Program-made: the position numbers and the translations under genes
Notes under the pieces: generated by a model
Databases searched by the model: none
What the model was told of the DNA's origin: nothing
Seen by the model: only the letters and a program-made list of their open reading frames with translations
Shown: positions 2,608-33,185 of the stretch, in pieces
Position numbering within the stretch: position 1 is the first letter of the stretch
Layout: each line of letters begins with the position of its first letter
Virus record (IMG/VR): IMGVR_UViG_3300029286_000013
DNA length: 64,000 nt
Direction: 5' to 3' (one strand)
Origin: a virus

Positions 2608-3021
2608 TTACTCCAAAATGTAGGGTTTGTCCCATTTGCCAATGTTAATATCAACATAATAGGCGATGTTGAAATAGTCAATCATTGCGTTGGATTCGTC
2701 ATACCAATCGGCCGACTTCAATGCCTTGAATGCTTCGGTTAAGAATGCCTTAGCATCACCATCATAGTGATCCTGAAACCAGTAAGGATTAACCTGATCG
2801 TAACCACTAGTAGTAGGTTTGAAGCCACGTTGCACCTGATAAAAGTCATTACCGCAAACTCTGTTGCTATTGCCAATAAAGTCAATAGCACCGGATTTGA
2901 GGGTCAGTACAATGGTACTGTGATTCCTAACACTCAGTGAGCCTTTAACTTTGTACTTAGCCAAGATTGGCTTAAGCATTTTAGTAATCTTTGCTTTGCG
3001 TTCCTGATTCATATAAGCCAT
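2608..3021 (-). CDS. Phage hypothetical protein
   Basis: 137-aa ORF with SD and promoter; ends YYVDINIGKWDKPY. Confidence 0.8.
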   Translation of the reverse strand: MAYMNQERKAKITKMLKPILAKYKVKGSLSVRNHSTIVLTLKSGAIDFIGNSNRVCGNDFYQVQRGFKPTTSGYDQVNPYWFQDHYDGDAKAFLTEAFKALKSADWYDESNAMIDYFNIAYYVDINIGKWDKPYILE

Positions 3022-3053
3022 TTTGTTTCCTTTTCTTTACTGTCTAAGATTCT

Positions 3054-3082
3054 ATTATATACCCAAACTAATTTATTGTCAA
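3054..3082 (-). promoter_or_regulatory. sigma70-type early promoter (repeat copy 1)
   Basis: TTGACA ATAAATTAGTTTGGGTA TATAAT. Confidence 0.9.
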
Positions 3083-3087
3083 CCTTT

Positions 3088-3261
3088 TTAAGAATTTATT
3101 GTCCTGAAAGGACTAAATTCCTCAGTCTGGCCTTCAATAGATTCCACTACATCATAAATAAAAATCACCGGTACGTCAAGTACCGCGGAGATAGTTGCCG
3201 GATGTGTGCCTTTTTCAAGCATTTCCTCGATCTCCATATATAAGTCTGCCATTTTACTCAT
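3088..3261 (-). CDS. Small acidic hypothetical protein, 57 aa (not in ORF track)
   Basis: MSKMADLYMEIEEMLEKGTHPATISAVLDVP...; TAATG overlap with the upstream gene. Confidence 0.7.
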   Translation of the reverse strand: MSKMADLYMEIEEMLEKGTHPATISAVLDVPVIFIYDVVESIEGQTEEFSPFRTINS

Positions 3262-3536
3262 TACAAAACCTCCAACATGTTAGCGGGCACTTTCCAACTA
3301 CGGAACTGTCCTGGTTGATCTACGATAATAAATTTACGATTGATTTTCTTTACAACACCGGAGATTGTACCACGGGTCGAACTTGTAAATTTAACATTAG
3401 AACCGATTGTCAATGCTGATTTGTTTCGTACCACAAGTTGGGCACGGGCAAAACGCATTGCATCACCGATGCTATTCAATTCTTCGTTAGTGAAGTCACC
3501 CTGCATAATAGCAGTATTAATTTGCTTGATGTTCAT
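3261..3536 (-). CDS. Hypothetical protein (possible SH3-like C-terminus)
   Basis: 91-aa ORF, SD AAGGAG. Confidence 0.75.
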   Translation of the reverse strand: MNIKQINTAIMQGDFTNEELNSIGDAMRFARAQLVVRNKSALTIGSNVKFTSSTRGTISGVVKKINRKFIIVDQPGQFRSWKVPANMLEVL

Positions 3537-3565
3537 AAAAACTCCTTTTGACTGAATAAGACTCT

Positions 3566-3594
3566 ATTATAGACCCAAAACCATTTATTGTCAA
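3566..3594 (-). promoter_or_regulatory. sigma70-type early promoter (repeat copy 2)
   Basis: TTGACA ATAAATGGTTTTGGGTC TATAAT. Confidence 0.9.
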
Positions 3595-3597
3595 ATT

Positions 3598-3864
3598 TTA
3601 GACAATGTTAACCTGTACATCGTGATTGACACCTTGGAATGTGCTACGAGTTCCGTAGCCTACTGGAATCTCTTTTTTGCCGCAACTCTTGGCTAAATCA
3701 CGGGAGCATTGCAAATGTTGCAAGGCCGAAATAACTGCAACACGGTGTGAACTAGTAGAAAAGTTCTCAATATCAGAAACCTTACAATACATACCAAATC
3801 CGTCAATGATAAAACGAATCTTTTGGCTGTTATTCATACCAGAAACTACTTGTTGTGTACGCAT
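3598..3864 (-). CDS. Hypothetical protein
   Basis: 88-aa ORF, SD AAGGA. Confidence 0.7.
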   Translation of the reverse strand: MRTQQVVSGMNNSQKIRFIIDGFGMYCKVSDIENFSTSSHRVAVISALQHLQCSRDLAKSCGKKEIPVGYGTRSTFQGVNHDVQVNIV

Positions 3865-3896
3865 TTTATGTCCTTTATTTGACTGTTTAAGATTGT

Positions 3897-3925
3897 ATTA
3901 TACACCCAAATCCATTTATTGTCAA
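3897..3925 (-). promoter_or_regulatory. sigma70-type early promoter (repeat copy 3)
   Basis: TTGACA ATAAATGGATTTGGGTG TATAAT. Confidence 0.9.
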
Positions 3926-4200
3926 CCTTTTTTCAAGTACAAAAAGACCTTTTTTGTGCTTGAGGGAACCCATTTTTTAGCATCAGGGCCACAGGCTTCA
4001 TAGGTACTACGCATCAGTCCTGCCGTATGAAAATACCCTTCTTTGGTCTCTCCTACTACCGGATCAAATTCGGGTTTGTTCCAACTCTCGGGAAGGGTGC
4101 ATTTGAACCCATAAGTAAAATTAGTCAGCCTAGACATAAAGCTAGCCCGGACATTCTTACAATCCTTACAAAGAAGGTCTTTGTTAAATTCTTTAGCCAT
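3922..4200 (-). CDS. Hypothetical Cys-containing protein
   Basis: CKDCK...C...CGPDAKKW. Confidence 0.7.
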   Translation of the reverse strand: MAKEFNKDLLCKDCKNVRASFMSRLTNFTYGFKCTLPESWNKPEFDPVVGETKEGYFHTAGLMRSTYEACGPDAKKWVPSSTKKVFLYLKKG

Positions 4201-4225
4201 ATAATTCCTTTAGTTTCAATACAGT

Positions 4226-4254
4226 ATTGTATCAGAAACAGGAATTATTGTCAA
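4226..4254 (-). promoter_or_regulatory. sigma70-type early promoter
   Basis: TTGACA-N17-TACAAT. Confidence 0.8.
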
Positions 4255-4396
4255 ATTTTGGATGTTTGGATTTGCGTTGATAGCCTGTTTTAGACTTAAC
4301 AACCTTAGGTTTGAAGGGAGTATTCTCACAGAAAAGAACACGGTGAGCCCGGTGTTTGGGCTCTTTAACGGTGAATGATAGTAGTACCTTTTTCAT
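4232..4396 (-). CDS. Small basic protein, ArfA-like (54 aa, not in ORF track)
   Basis: MKKVLLSFTVKEPKHRAHRVLFCENTPFKPKVVKSKTGYQRKSKHPKFDNNSCF; resembles the ArfA core [23 protein letters not shown]. Confidence 0.55.
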   Translation of the reverse strand: MKKVLLSFTVKEPKHRAHRVLFCENTPFKPKVVKSKTGYQRKSKHPKFDNNSCF

Positions 4397-4405
4397 AATA
4401 CAAGT

Positions 4406-4434
4406 ATTATAGCAGAAATACTATTTATTGTCAA
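4406..4434 (-). promoter_or_regulatory. sigma70-type early promoter
   Basis: TTGACA ATAAATAGTATTTCTGC TATAAT, 9 nt before the ATG at 4396. Confidence 0.85.
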
Positions 4435-4714
4435 TATTTGTAATCAACCAGCGATAAATGGGCGTAGTGAAGGTTAGTGTGTTATCTACAATCAAATGGT
4501 GTACTGAAATGTTTTCTATACATATATTAGCTATAGCCATATTAAAGGTCAATGTGTGTGTTTGATTGTCATCAATTATTTCATATTGCCCATTATTATG
4601 CTCAAGTATATTACCATCTAGTTTGATTTCTAAGTCGGGTGACATAGTTACATCAACTACAAACTTTTTAACAAAGGGAATTTTTCCAGGCATACTATAC
4701 ATTGTCGACCTCAT
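4421..4714 (-). CDS. Hypothetical protein
   Basis: 97-aa ORF overlapping the upstream gene end. Confidence 0.55.
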   Translation of the reverse strand: MRSTMYSMPGKIPFVKKFVVDVTMSPDLEIKLDGNILEHNNGQYEIIDDNQTHTLTFNMAIANICIENISVHHLIVDNTLTFTTPIYRWLITNIDNK

Positions 4715-5852
4715 TAAATAGGTAATCTAAACTATCTCCATAGAGACTATCAAATTCTTTTTTACTGAAGAATGGTAGATTAGGAGTTTTAATTATAGTG
4801 CTATCAGATAATCTAGCAATCCATCTCATATCTCTCATAATTATTTTTTTAAGTGTATACCACGCAAATTGTATGCTGTTGGATTTGCTTTTGTATACAA
4901 AGTAATCTTCATTCTTATCAAACTCAAAGATATATTTCTTCATAAAGTTTTTATGTGTTCTGTAATCGTGTCTGTTTTCAATAATCAATTGTGGGTTAAA
5001 ATACATAAATGCTTCAAATTCATAGTTATCATAAAATCCAATAGTATCTTCTATCTTAGTATCTTTTTGGTTAGTAAGAAACACATTATCTGCTATTTGA
5101 AACACTTGTGATTTATTTGATGCATAAAACCACCATCGTGCATCAAGTAAAGTTTCAATGGGTTTACCTGCATTAGCAAAATAATTCTCGCTAAATTCAA
5201 TTAGATTGTCTTTATTCTGTTCACGGAAATAATCTTTCCAAGGTTTATACAACCCATCACCACCCACCTTCTCATAAAAACTATCATCTAAACTACTAAC
5301 AAACTCATCACCACCGTGACCGTTTAACATTAGTCCATCAAAATGATTATCCATATAGATTGTACCACTGATATCAAGTGTCTCTACTTGTGGATAATCT
5401 CTATGTAATAATTCTAAAAAGTCTCTATTTTCATAAACGGAAAACGGTGAATATAATACTCTTAATTGACTTAGATTGGGTGCGTGTTTTAAAAATCCAA
5501 CAAGCATTGTAGTAGAATCGATACCCCCACTCCAACATAAGTTTATTTTTCTATTAGAACATACGTGACGCATAACTTGGTTATACATTATATCTTCAAA
5601 TGATAAACTTGATGTTGGTATTTTCCAATCACGTAATAATTTATATTTTAATGGTGATTGTATTGTATTAGTTCTATCTACTACTTCACCAAACGGATAG
5701 CTTGAAAATACACTATTGATATCAATTAGTTTGTTATAGTTATTGAAACCATTTATTTTAAATAGATTCCCTGCGAATTCGTATTGTATACCTTTCCAGT
5801 TTAAAATTTTATAAAGGTATTCAGGATTTGTTGCTAATAATAGTGGTTTCAT
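4695..5852 (-). CDS. PP-loop ATPase, asparagine-synthase-like (paralog 1)
   Basis: WSGGIDST PP-loop and NGHGGDEF motif. Confidence 0.7.
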   Translation of the reverse strand: MKPLLLATNPEYLYKILNWKGIQYEFAGNLFKINGFNNYNKLIDINSVFSSYPFGEVVDRTNTIQSPLKYKLLRDWKIPTSSLSFEDIMYNQVMRHVCSNRKINLCWSGGIDSTTMLVGFLKHAPNLSQLRVLYSPFSVYENRDFLELLHRDYPQVETLDISGTIYMDNHFDGLMLNGHGGDEFVSSLDDSFYEKVGGDGLYKPWKDYFREQNKDNLIEFSENYFANAGKPIETLLDARWWFYASNKSQVFQIADNVFLTNQKDTKIEDTIGFYDNYEFEAFMYFNPQLIIENRHDYRTHKNFMKKYIFEFDKNEDYFVYKSKSNSIQFAWYTLKKIIMRDMRWIARLSDSTIIKTPNLPFFSKKEFDSLYGDSLDYLFNEVDNV

Positions 5853-25691: not shown

Positions 25692-25772
25692 TGGCTCCAC
25701 GGCTAGGACTCGAACCTAGCTTGCTTTCGCACAGATTAACAGTCTGCTGCCACACCCGGCGGCTCCCGTGGA
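25692..25772 (-). tRNA. tRNA-Asn(GTT), atypical
   Basis: Loop CTGTTAA, G73, CCA; G8; 11-nt variable region with GC-GAAA-GC hairpin. Confidence 0.85.
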
Positions 25773-26631: not shown

Positions 26632-26655
26632 TAGTATTGTAGATGTATAATACAT

Positions 26656-30010: not shown

Positions 30011-30157
30011 TCATTTTACCTTGTACAGTATATGATAAACCTTCGCACGTTGTAACTTGTTAGCTATCAACTGTGCTAGTTGCTCCTTTGTCAGAACATG
30101 ATTGCTAAACCAATCTTGCTTTGCTTCAGAAGTTTTGTATTCTATCTCTTTATCCAT
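30011..30157 (-). CDS. Possible 48-aa ORF directly after the attenuator
   Basis: MDKEIEYKTSEAKQDWFSNHVLTKEQLAQLIANKLQRAKVYHILYKVK; ATG lies within a promoter spacer. Confidence 0.35.
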   Translation of the reverse strand: MDKEIEYKTSEAKQDWFSNHVLTKEQLAQLIANKLQRAKVYHILYKVK

Positions 30158-30195: not shown

Positions 30196-30234
30196 AAACA
30201 AAAACCCCTAAGACTTTTTAGTTTCCCAGGGGTT
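30196..30234 (-). terminator. Intrinsic terminator (attenuator)
   Basis: AACCCCTGGGA-N10-TCTTAGGGGTT then TTTGTTTG. Confidence 0.8.
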
Positions 30235-30278
30235 AGATAAATTTAGTTATGATGTTAACTTGTTACCTAGTCCCCGGG
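30225..30278 (-). promoter_or_regulatory. Antiterminator hairpin overlapping the leader stop codon and the terminator 5' arm
   Basis: CCC-GGGG-ac-TAGGTAA..AGTTA / TAACT..TTATCTA-a-CCCC-t-GGG, about 19 bp. Confidence 0.65.
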
Positions 30279-30400
30279 TCTCTCTCTTGGTTATCATTTG
30301 AGCCGCGAATACTTGTTGGATATGCTGGTGTAAAGGATACACTGGCTAATGACTGCCATTGTCCCATATGCTTCAGCGTTTTACAAGTTTTATTCATCAT
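30263..30400 (-). CDS. Putative leader peptide, 45 aa (not in ORF track)
   Basis: MMNKTCKTLKHMGQWQSLASVSFTPAYPTSIRGSNDNQERDPGTR; all 20 amino acids; CTAAATA 6 nt before ATG. Confidence 0.65.
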   Translation of the reverse strand: MMNKTCKTLKHMGQWQSLASVSFTPAYPTSIRGSNDNQERDPGTR

Positions 30401-30474
30401 AGTCTTTATTTAGTCCTGGTTGTAAATTAGTGCAAATACAGTACGTTTTTACACCTTTTCTCAATTCATGCTGA

Positions 30475-30503
30475 AGTATAGCACGGGTGTTGATTAATGT
30501 CAA
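30475..30503 (-). promoter_or_regulatory. sigma70 promoter heading the tRNA region
   Basis: TTGACA TTAATCAACACCCGTGC TATACT. Confidence 0.85.
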
Positions 30504-30574
30504 CCTTTAATGTGCCCAAATCATTTACGAATGAAATTCTAGGCTATAAATATAGTATGGTTAATAAATATAGT

Positions 30575-30874
30575 ATGATTGGCAATTCCACTATTCTCAG
30601 AGTCACTACAACTAAAACAGATTCTTCTATAGAATTCTATAAAGATGTTGCTGTTATGAACCATGTATTGAATGAATATATATTTCCTAATAAGCTTGTC
30701 GCAGTTACACGCACAGAAGATGATGGACTTACTGTTATAACTACATTAAATTTTGCATCAAATGAGTATGCAAATGAATTCCTTTCTGACCCAATAATTA
30801 AAGATTTTGGTAAAGCAAAACAAGAATACAATCAACAACATAACATATCAAAAAAAACTGAGGCAATTAATTAA
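30575..30874 (+). CDS. Small Dabb/ABM-like protein (alternative start 30557)
   Basis: Paralogous to 31938-32249 (IEFY, DGLTVITT, DPI, EYN). Confidence 0.6.
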   Translation: MIGNSTILRVTTTKTDSSIEFYKDVAVMNHVLNEYIFPNKLVAVTRTEDDGLTVITTLNFASNEYANEFLSDPIIKDFGKAKQEYNQQHNISKKTEAIN

Positions 30875-31937: not shown

Positions 31938-32249
31938 TTATATTGTCTCTGTTGTTCTGTCGGTCAATACGATTCCATTAGCCGTGTTATATTCTCTTCG
32001 GAGATTCCATTTATCACTAACTATGGGGTCAGCAAGAGCTTCATTATATACTTCCTCACTCTCCCACAACATGGTAGTAATGAGTGTTAGTCCATCACTT
32101 GATTGTTGACGATCTAAGAATAGTAATTTAGATGTTTGTTTATATGTAGCGTCCCAGTGACTTCTAAATGCATCAGAATCTTCCCCCATGACAGAATAAA
32201 ATTCTACGTCAACTGAAGGTCTTGTATGTTTTGCTGTTATTTGGTACAT
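31938..32249 (-). CDS. Small Dabb/ABM-like protein
   Basis: KHTRPSVDVEFY...TTMLWESEE...DP...EYNTANGI. Confidence 0.65.
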   Translation of the reverse strand: MYQITAKHTRPSVDVEFYSVMGEDSDAFRSHWDATYKQTSKLLFLDRQQSSDGLTLITTMLWESEEVYNEALADPIVSDKWNLRREYNTANGIVLTDRTTETI

Positions 32250-32258
32250 TCTTTTTTC

Positions 32259-33185
32259 CTATAATACAGTATTTATCATAGTTACAGTATTGCCGGTAAC
32301 ATCTTTTGTAACATCGGCATAGCCTTCTTTTATAAAGGCTTCGGGATAGTAACTTTTAATCAAATCTGCTTGATGTTGGCCTTGAATTTGACCTTTCCAT
32401 TGTACTGCCGCACTAGTCATTTCTTCTGGATTTTCCCAACGTTGGAATGCTAAAATAACAAACCCATTACCAGTACCTGCATCTTCATCACCGCCGTGAT
32501 ACCCACCGTTAACTAACTTAGTACTAAGTCCTCCCCATGTTCTACTTGTATTAGTTATTGATCCTTCGTCAGGCTTCCAAGTTCCTCCGCCCCCCATTGT
32601 CATAGTAATCACTTCCATTCTAGGATGTGAGTGTTTCCAGATGTACATGTTTGGATACTCAATATAAAATTCAACTTGATAGTTACCTTTTCTGAATAAA
32701 CAAATAGCCACAGCATCGTCACTACGTATGACATTTGCATTCCAAGGAATCATCATGGGCATTCTTTGTTCACAATACCAATCTACAAAATCTTCGAGGC
32801 TAGACCAATCATCTGGAATTTTAACATCTTTAAAATAATCCTTAGCATCAACTTGTTTCCATGTGGGTCTAATGAATCCAGCATCTGATGTTGAACTTGA
32901 TACTATACCATTTATTTGCTCATACTCAGTACTGATTTTTGTAAAGTTTTCTACACAAAACGGATCACTAAAATATTCAGCAAAAGCCTCCTGTGATTCC
33001 CATACTGTCGTAGTAGATATAGTCAACTGATCCTCTGACATTGTTCTATCAAATCTCACTAGTTTACCAGTATCTATATAATTTGCTTTTAGATACGATC
33101 CGTATTCAGGTCTGACAAGCTTAGTCTGATAAAAGAATGGAATATCAACGCTAGGTCTCGTATGCTTCTTTGTAATAGTTATCAT
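32259..33185 (-). CDS. Fusion of Dabb-like domain and cupin domain
   Basis: N-terminal KHTRPSVDIPFF...WESQE; C-terminal KHSHPRME. Confidence 0.65.
   Translation of the reverse strand: MITITKKHTRPSVDIPFFYQTKLVRPEYGSYLKANYIDTGKLVRFDRTMSEDQLTISTTTVWESQEAFAEYFSDPFCVENFTKISTEYEQINGIVSSSTSDAGFIRPTWKQVDAKDYFKDVKIPDDWSSLEDFVDWYCEQRMPMMIPWNANVIRSDDAVAICLFRKGNYQVEFYIEYPNMYIWKHSHPRMEVITMTMGGGGTWKPDEGSITNTSRTWGGLSTKLVNGGYHGGDEDAGTGNGFVILAFQRWENPEEMTSAAVQWKGQIQGQHQADLIKSYYPEAFIKEGYADVTKDVTGNTVTMINTVL

Follow-up and report, generated by a model that had tools for sequence, protein, structure and literature searches.

A Candidate Ribosome-Mediated Attenuator with a Complete Amino Acid Leader Peptide at the Head of Phage tRNA Arrays

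Introduction

What decides when a phage transcribes its own tRNA genes is the question raised by a 64,000-nucleotide stretch of DNA from a lake phage (IMG/VR virus record IMGVR_UViG_3300029286_000013; "the window" below is this whole stretch). Its array of 27 tRNA genes covers all 20 amino acids, and just ahead of the array, on the minus strand, lies a short open reading frame (ORF), the leader ORF, whose end is embedded in two alternative RNA folds, an antiterminator and an intrinsic terminator. To our knowledge, hardly anything is known of how phage tRNA genes are controlled. The reasons for carrying such genes are still debated; they have been proposed to serve codon compensation, to replace host tRNAs that decay and to evade defenses that cleave tRNAs (PMC10264068, PMC11555353, PMC11464382). 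In the literature searched, outside subscription journals, no description was found of phage tRNA genes under the control of a leader peptide.

Leader ORFs that govern transcription are familiar from Enterobacteria (trpL, hisL, leuL, thrL, pheL, and ilv), where a ribosome at the stop codon of the leader blocks an antiterminator and a ribosome that stalls upstream of it gives read-through. An earlier annotation of the window, made from its letters alone (the first-pass annotation), assigned the same logic to the phage leader. Analysis of the window and of its relatives makes it probable that the leader element is a ribosome-mediated transcription attenuator with a complete, "one of each" amino acid leader peptide, in which the decoding of every amino acid is gauged; slow decoding of any one of them probably lets transcription run on past the terminator. 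This reading rests on the elements of the locus and their geometry, on selection for the complete amino acid set, on the conservation and covariation of both folds, and on the place of the element at the head of tRNA arrays, all of which are observed in the DNA. The element is real and strongly conserved, and the constraint on it, a complete amino acid alphabet, is unusual and statistically well supported.

Results

A leader ORF with all 20 amino acids

The leader ORF (30263–30400, minus strand) consists of 45 codons followed by TAA; it starts with ATGATG and encodes the peptide MMNKTCKTLKHMGQWQSLASVSFTPAYPTSIRGSNDNQERDPGTR. All 20 amino acids are present, 19 of them by codon 36 and the last, Glu, at codon 39, and 35 distinct codons are used, as the first-pass annotation had described. 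Codons ending in G or C make up 40% of the leader ORF vs. 24% in the genes of the phage. Nearly every distinct anticodon of the phage has a readable codon in the leader (24 of 25, the exception being Arg-TCG; the Ile2-type CAT anticodon is indistinguishable from Met), which agrees with the earlier tally of 25 of the 27 tRNAs. Among 45-residue segments of the phage's own proteins, all-20 content occurs in 1.7% and at least 35 distinct codons in 0.15%, and coverage of 24 anticodons is reached in 0 of 11,743. The rarity of this composition in a single sequence is suggestive, not decisive.

Homologs were collected by two routes: a search of IMG/VR with the leader peptide, seeded by its own N-terminal motifs, and a search with only the family of the neighboring small gene, ORF48 (described below), which is independent of leader sequence. 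The peptide search yielded 52 loci in which a small ORF is homologous to the leader, the most distant at 51% identity, and the ORF48-only search added 55 loci in which the region upstream of ORF48 held known leaders as well as two far more distant classes. In total there are 63 distinct leaders, all from uncultured phages, which fall into three classes (A, to which the motifs of the window's leader belong, B, and C) whose peptides are barely alignable with one another. Class B leaders have 55–58 codons (e.g., MKNICIQSLKHTGQW...) and class C leaders 46–51 (e.g., MQSFNRHQKFNTMPKLAG...SYDRTPEI...). All 20 amino acids are present in 61 of the 63, within 43–58 codons; when ORFs were picked identically at random window anchors, a 20-amino-acid ORF was obtained in 1.2% of trials. 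Outside these phages the region is isolated. In the cultured-phage collection, no relative of it was found except for tRNA matches, and the ribonucleotide reductase of the window shares only 59% identity with its counterpart in Xanthomonas phages. The sole match among 185,579 bacterial and archaeal species genomes was rejected as chance, since it falls within a protein of 611 aa and has no tRNAs in its vicinity.

Shared ancestry alone could keep a composition intact, and completeness was therefore compared with tree-aware nulls, in which parsimony substitutions were placed on the tree and the tips keeping all 20 amino acids were counted. For class A, with 184 inferred substitutions, three nulls of 3,000–5,000 runs each were used. 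The 39 complete tips of 40 compare with a mean of 11.9 and a maximum of 32 when derived residues were permuted among branches and sites, with 13.0 and 35 when they were drawn from proteome composition, and with 9.9 and 33 when columns evolved independently with site-specific rates and frequencies. In class C, 15 of 16 tips are complete vs. a null mean of 3.1 and a maximum of 10. The alignments of classes A and C indicate how this comes about: the single-copy Glu, Asp, Val, Phe, Gln, Cys, and His residues shift site between clades without being lost, and completeness exceeds the nulls because loss of a sole residue at one site is met by a copy elsewhere. By these comparisons of sequences, the complete set is under selection and not merely inherited. 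The first-pass annotation had singled out excess amino acid diversity in leaders upstream of related tRNA arrays as telling, and such an excess is what the homologs display.

An ordinary gene for a small protein, equipped with a promoter and a terminator of its own, a functional peptide and a stop-codon hairpin that stabilizes the 3′ end of the mRNA, might also be conserved in this position. The ORF is indeed conserved, with the motifs MMNKTC and PAYPTSIRG fixed within class A, and its relatives form 26 clusters in a large protein database, all unnamed and called as hypothetical proteins by gene callers. Peptides that can barely be aligned between classes, yet keep the 20-amino-acid set while its residues move, do not evolve as a folded protein or a binding peptide would, and together with the conserved overlap of the folds and the constant position ahead of tRNA arrays (both below) this makes a small protein gene a very unlikely explanation.

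Still less probable, and to be regarded as quite implausible, is the view that the ORF is incidental and the element is either a small non-coding RNA or a signal for processing at the head of the tRNA precursor. A promoter, a transcript of about 270 nt and a terminator are present, as such an RNA would need, and RNA-library contigs from three metatranscriptome studies cover the leader region of relatives, one of them bridging the terminator and one stopping near it; these contigs, which carry no RNA ends and no strand, in which DNA is not excluded and whose gaps in coverage carry no information, give a weak hint that the leader region is transcribed. The sense frame, however, is open in all 63 distinct homologs, with in-frame indels, fixed start codons and a stop codon that always lies inside the hairpin. 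RNAalifold found no conserved RNA helix in the body of the ORF, and in Rfam the leader region matches neither a T-box nor any other family: only tRNA reaches its gathering score, and the remaining matches, at E up to 10, are at chance level. Amino acid completeness, moreover, would be meaningless in an untranslated RNA; selection for the complete set makes sense only if the ORF is translated.

One homolog departs from the common frame: at L044:3001-3141, the G-run of the antiterminator arm is one G longer, which shifts the leader frame so that it ends at a TAG 9 nt further on; either a sequencing error or natural variation may account for the added G. On the opposite strand, an antisense ORF of 54 aa (30249–30413, plus strand) is open in the window, and its translation, too, includes all 20 amino acids. 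Since its frame is broken in 33 of 63 relatives and open in 30, it was not accepted as a gene and is most likely a by-product. A contig of 524,565 bases (IMGVR_UViG_3300027749_002876) carries two different leader–ORF48 modules (L055 and L068) about 290 kb apart, and represents either a phage with two arrays or a contig joining two related phages.

Amino acids rather than codons

The first-pass annotation had gone further and proposed that individual tRNAs or codons are sensed, a claim for which no support was found. Class A leaders do contain more distinct codons than are obtained under synonymous resampling, and both Ser, both Arg and both Gly codon families occur in all 40 of 40. The key codons, however, lie at conserved or structured positions, and the tRNA coverage of the window's leader, given its peptide, is often reached by synonymous resampling (P = 0.06). 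A codon- or tRNA-specific design of the leader is accordingly not claimed.

Two mutually exclusive folds at the end of the leader

The last codons and the stop codon of the leader ORF, CCCGGGGACUAGGUAA, form the 5′ half of an antiterminator hairpin (30225–30278, minus strand) composed of three helices: P1 (30278–30272/30231–30225), P2 (30269–30263/30240–30234), which contains the stop codon, and P3 (30260–30256/30249–30245). These contribute 7, 7, and 5 bp, 19 bp in all, and the fold has a computed energy of −20.8 kcal/mol without the 3′ arm of the terminator. The intrinsic terminator (30196–30234, minus strand; −14.9 kcal/mol) has an 11-bp stem (30234–30224/30213–30203) and a 10-nt loop, followed by UUUUUGUUU (U-tract) to position 30196; a simple terminator scan with a loop limit of 8 missed it. 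The two folds overlap at 30234–30224, where 8 nt are common to the 3′ arm of the antiterminator and the 5′ arm of the terminator, and the segment CCCUGGG (30231–30225) is at once the outer 3′ arm of the antiterminator and the core of the terminator 5′ arm. The first-pass annotation had described a pairing of about 19 bp over the stop codon that excludes the terminator, and this is the arrangement found.

Both folds are kept in relatives. When 42 distinct class A tails were aligned with MAFFT, 99.6% of cells were paired in the terminator, with C-G replaced by A-U in 13 sequences, and 91% are paired in the antiterminator, with both sides changed at three pairs; sliding the partners by one column as a control lowers pairing to 52–72%. 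The RNAalifold consensus is the terminator. A further example comes from two relatives (L047/48), in which a G-to-A change in the shared segment is accompanied by a matching C-to-U change in the 5′ arm of the antiterminator and by a U at the opposite position in the 3′ arm of the terminator, so that one substitution is accommodated by both folds. The arms of class C differ in sequence and follow the same design (antiterminator GGGGUCC/GGACCCC, terminator CCCCAGG/CCUGGGG). Here the antiterminator shows A-U/G-C and C-G/U-A swaps, and a shared nucleotide is either U or C, for which the antiterminator arm compensates with A or G while the terminator partner is G either way. Covarying pairs in relatives, which the first-pass annotation had named as the feature to look for, are thus present in two classes with different arms, and maintenance of the arm overlap by compensatory change is not what would be expected if the hairpin only stabilized the 3′ end of the mRNA of a small protein gene.

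Over the whole collection, the antiterminator forms in 63 of 63 leaders once the 3′ arm of the terminator is removed (mean fold z = −3.0 vs. shuffles), and in every one of them 6–13 nt are common to the antiterminator and the terminator 5′ arm. In class A the two folds are near-isoenergetic (means of −18.6 vs. −17.6 kcal/mol).

Placement of the stop codon and of permissive stall sites

In all three classes the stop codon lies inside the antiterminator, whose 5′ arm starts 12–17 nt before the stop in class A, 30–39 nt before it in class B and 21–28 nt before it in class C. During translation, mRNA is unwound as far as about +11 from the P site of the ribosome, and this rule was used to find, for each leader, the last codon whose stalled ribosome leaves the antiterminator arm free. 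The amino acid set is complete at this last permissive stall position or within one codon of it, with 20 of 20 amino acids inside the permissive zone in 30 leaders and 19 of 20 in 32. Codons within the antiterminator arm supply no unique amino acid in any class. This geometry fits ribosome-mediated attenuation.

Promoter and start region of the leader

Transcription of the leader would start from promoter P1 (30475–30503, minus strand), with TTGACA, a 17-nt spacer, and TATACT with a TG-extended −10 (11 of 12 consensus matches). The promoters of the locus are of the consensus sigma-70 type, and the element as a whole measures about 300 bp. Promoter P1 had been listed in the first-pass annotation, and a comparable promoter (at least 10 of 12 matches, 17-nt spacer) precedes the leader in 42 of 42 distinct class A loci and in 19 of 19 class B and C loci tested. 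About 70 nt past promoter P1 lies an invariant box, CAGGACTAAATAAAGACT (30401–30418, minus strand), which stands directly before the ATGATG start codons and includes, 6 nt before the ATG, the CTAAATA motif (30413–30407) that the first-pass annotation had called a late-type box and that is indeed there. The CAGGACTAAATAA box is unchanged throughout classes A and B; in class C it is replaced by Shine-Dalgarno-like GGA or GAG 6–9 nt before the ATG. The CAGGACTAAATAAAGACT box may act as a translation start region, as a late-type promoter, or as both. The spacing of CTAAATA to the ATG resembles that of the TATAAATA boxes of the phage; CTAAATA itself is no general motif in the window, where an ATG follows in only 3 of its 20 copies.

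The TATAAATA boxes lie 4–7 nt before the start codons of many window genes (e.g., upstream of 29350, 29604, 35310, 39240, and 41347), most of which have no Shine-Dalgarno site. If a spacing like that of T4 late promoters applies, mRNAs from TATAAATA boxes would be nearly leaderless.

Genes behind the switch and the extent of its control

The first gene behind the switch, in the window and in all relatives, is ORF48 (30011–30157, minus strand), which encodes 48 aa and is conserved at 48–55 aa in its family. Searches of Pfam, PHROGs, PDB sequences and the ESM Atlas yielded nothing significant, and its predicted model, two helices with a predicted local distance difference test (pLDDT) score of 80, is too simple for a structure search. 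Its ATG falls between the −35 and −10 boxes of a second promoter, P2 (30139–30167, minus strand; TTGACA, 17 nt, TAGAAT; 11 of 12 matches), which lies directly behind the terminator and is not attenuated. Of the 42 class A loci, 35 have promoter P2 with 10 or more of 12 matches, and it recurs in class B; in class C there is no near-consensus promoter between the terminator and ORF48. Since the ATG of ORF48 in classes A and B is upstream of the promoter P2 start site, only read-through transcripts can encode this protein.

Wherever a locus extends far enough, in each of the three classes, the leader is followed by a tRNA array on its own strand; the order of the tRNAs differs between loci, and no array was seen upstream of the leader in the loci examined. 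That the element always heads a tRNA array is a third point which a small protein gene would leave unexplained.

The reach of the switch over the array of the window is partial. The first-pass annotation had warned that promoter P2 bypasses the switch and that an internal terminator may limit read-through, and both features are real. A terminator-like hairpin (26632–26610, minus strand) inside the array is followed by a promoter of perfect consensus (26600–26572), and the two are predicted to split the array into separate transcription units. Given promoter P2, the internal promoters and the terminator at 26632–26610, read-through would do no more than supplement transcription of roughly the first eight tRNAs. 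The description of the element as an attenuator controlling the tRNA array is supported in its first part, the attenuator logic, by the complete leader, the conservation of both folds and the geometry, and falls short in the second, control of the whole array.

These same data bear on what the switch measures. The identical hardware could serve as a gauge of overall translation (ribosome supply, coupling, inhibitors, host shut-off) rather than of each amino acid or tRNA, with the ORF at 30157–30011, not the tRNAs, as its target. ORF48 is the sole gene that always lies behind the attenuator, by its start position in classes A and B and by the lack of an intervening promoter in class C; the tRNAs of the window have promoters of their own; and attenuators that respond to general translation stress exist, for example that of whiB7 (PMC10274678). 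A gauge of this kind would have no need of the full set of amino acids, for which selection is nevertheless strong in three classes, and 9 of the 15 class C loci have no near-consensus promoter from the switch to the first tRNA, so that there the first tRNAs, too, have no other recognizable promoter. On balance a gauge of overall translation seems unlikely, and an attenuator that monitors the decoding of every amino acid is preferred.

Discussion

The attenuator envisaged here would work as follows. Transcription from promoter P1 would yield a short mRNA on which a ribosome translates the 45 codons. When decoding is fast, the ribosome would arrive at the stop codon, inside the 5′ half of the antiterminator, and cover the arms of helices P1 and P2; CCCUGGG would then be free to pair with the downstream arm of the terminator, and RNA polymerase would stop at 30196. 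A ribosome stalled at any earlier codon, or one that never loaded, would allow the antiterminator to form first, the envisaged causes of a stall being shortage of a charged tRNA, cleavage of a tRNA or slower translation overall. The antiterminator would sequester the 5′ arm of the terminator, and the polymerase would continue into the small ORF at 30157–30011 and the first tRNA genes. Almost all codons of the leader can be read by phage tRNAs, whose accumulation could therefore restore fast decoding and close a feedback loop. Translation of the ORF, the increase of read-through upon stalling, and the physiological trigger are what we infer from the conserved parts of the locus.

Several observations weigh against this attenuator. 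No normally spaced Shine-Dalgarno site was found in classes A and B. RNAalifold gave no anti-antiterminator (protector hairpin of the 1:2 type) and no pause element, which creates a problem of timing, since the antiterminator could refold after release of the ribosome. The only Glu codon of the window's leader (codon 39), whose closeness to the antiterminator had already been noted as a caveat by the first-pass annotation, is the borderline residue, at the very edge of the permissive stall zone, and a stricter footprint rule places one or two amino acids outside the zone in most leaders. Some class A positions (PAYPTSIRG) are more conserved than a mere rule of presence of each amino acid requires; SIRG may recall the arrest motif of SecM, a likeness to which no weight is given here. 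The U-tract is short in a few relatives (L050, L053), and in two others (L014/L015, equal to L080 and L082) a gene is inserted after the hairpin and the U-tract is replaced. Lastly, promoter P2 and seven or more other near-consensus promoters within the array feed the tRNAs of the window independently of the switch, so that its effect on tRNA output may be small.

The likeness to attenuators of the trp/his type lies in a promoter-proximal short ORF, in a terminator 5′ arm that is shared with an upstream antiterminator and in the placement of the stop codon. The phage leader differs from them in composition, having no runs or enrichment of one or a few amino acids and containing instead all 20, many of them once; it also has no detected protector hairpin of the 1:2 type, so that absence of translation should lead to read-through, not to super-attenuation, and it precedes a small ORF and tRNA genes rather than biosynthetic enzymes. 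T-boxes and the leaders of aminoacyl-tRNA synthetase genes (e.g., the pheST attenuator) also tie tRNA charging to the choice between terminator and antiterminator ahead of genes of the translation apparatus; a T-box, in contrast, binds one specific uncharged tRNA and needs no ribosome.

The nearest functional case is the upstream open reading frame (uORF) of mycobacterial whiB7, which is likewise of mixed composition and coupled to a choice between antiterminator and terminator, and by analogy with which the response of the phage leader may be pictured. The amino acid content of this uORF sets the starvations that are sensed, stalls at many different codons induce read-through, and basal read-through goes up when the start codon is lost (PMC10274678). 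The uORF holds 19 of the 20 amino acids in M. smegmatis, is missing several in M. tuberculosis, is enriched in alanine and varies between species (PMC10274678). Completeness is thus not conserved there, in contrast to the phage leaders; whiB7 attenuation moreover controls a transcription factor, in another host and type of genome, and is not related to the phage element by sequence.

If the complete-alphabet leader functions as proposed, it would be the first attenuator known to us whose design serves to read out the decoding system as a whole instead of a single pathway, and it would constitute direct sequence-level evidence of a phage monitoring tRNA supply. Selection for a complete alphabet regardless of order is in itself an unusual constraint on a coding sequence, and ORF48 is a small protein that is seemingly made only when the switch is open. 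In a broader form, for which the chances appear about even, the locus would be a decoding homeostat in a widespread group of uncultured freshwater phages: the leader would be a test string, a stall at any one codon type of which turns on an ORF48 effector and the full phage tRNA set, such that starvation, decay of host tRNAs or tRNA-cleaving defenses are detected and the tRNA pool is replaced. A connection of the switch with anticodon nucleases is something we infer as well.

Additional Features of the Locus

The array opens with tRNA-Arg (ACG; 29776–29700, minus strand), followed by tRNA-Lys (UUU; 29693–29618, minus strand). The 27th tRNA, a tRNA-Tyr (GTA; 24291–24210, minus strand) with a long variable arm, was missed by ARAGORN and found with Rfam; a tRNA-Asn (25692–25772, minus strand) is listed by ARAGORN and scores below the Rfam gathering threshold. 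In L014/L015, the additional ORF between the leader and ORF48 (approximately 1336–1494 of L080) ends in ...CANCHRRIH..., which is HNH-like by eye, and looks like an inserted homing-type gene. On the other side of the leader, three ORFs of the window (30497–30874, plus strand; 31938–32249, minus strand; 32259–33185, minus strand) share by eye an N-terminal module (...TKKHTRPSVD.., ..TT..WES.E....DP..) and, judged from this resemblance, look like a small paralogous family with no match in PHROGs.

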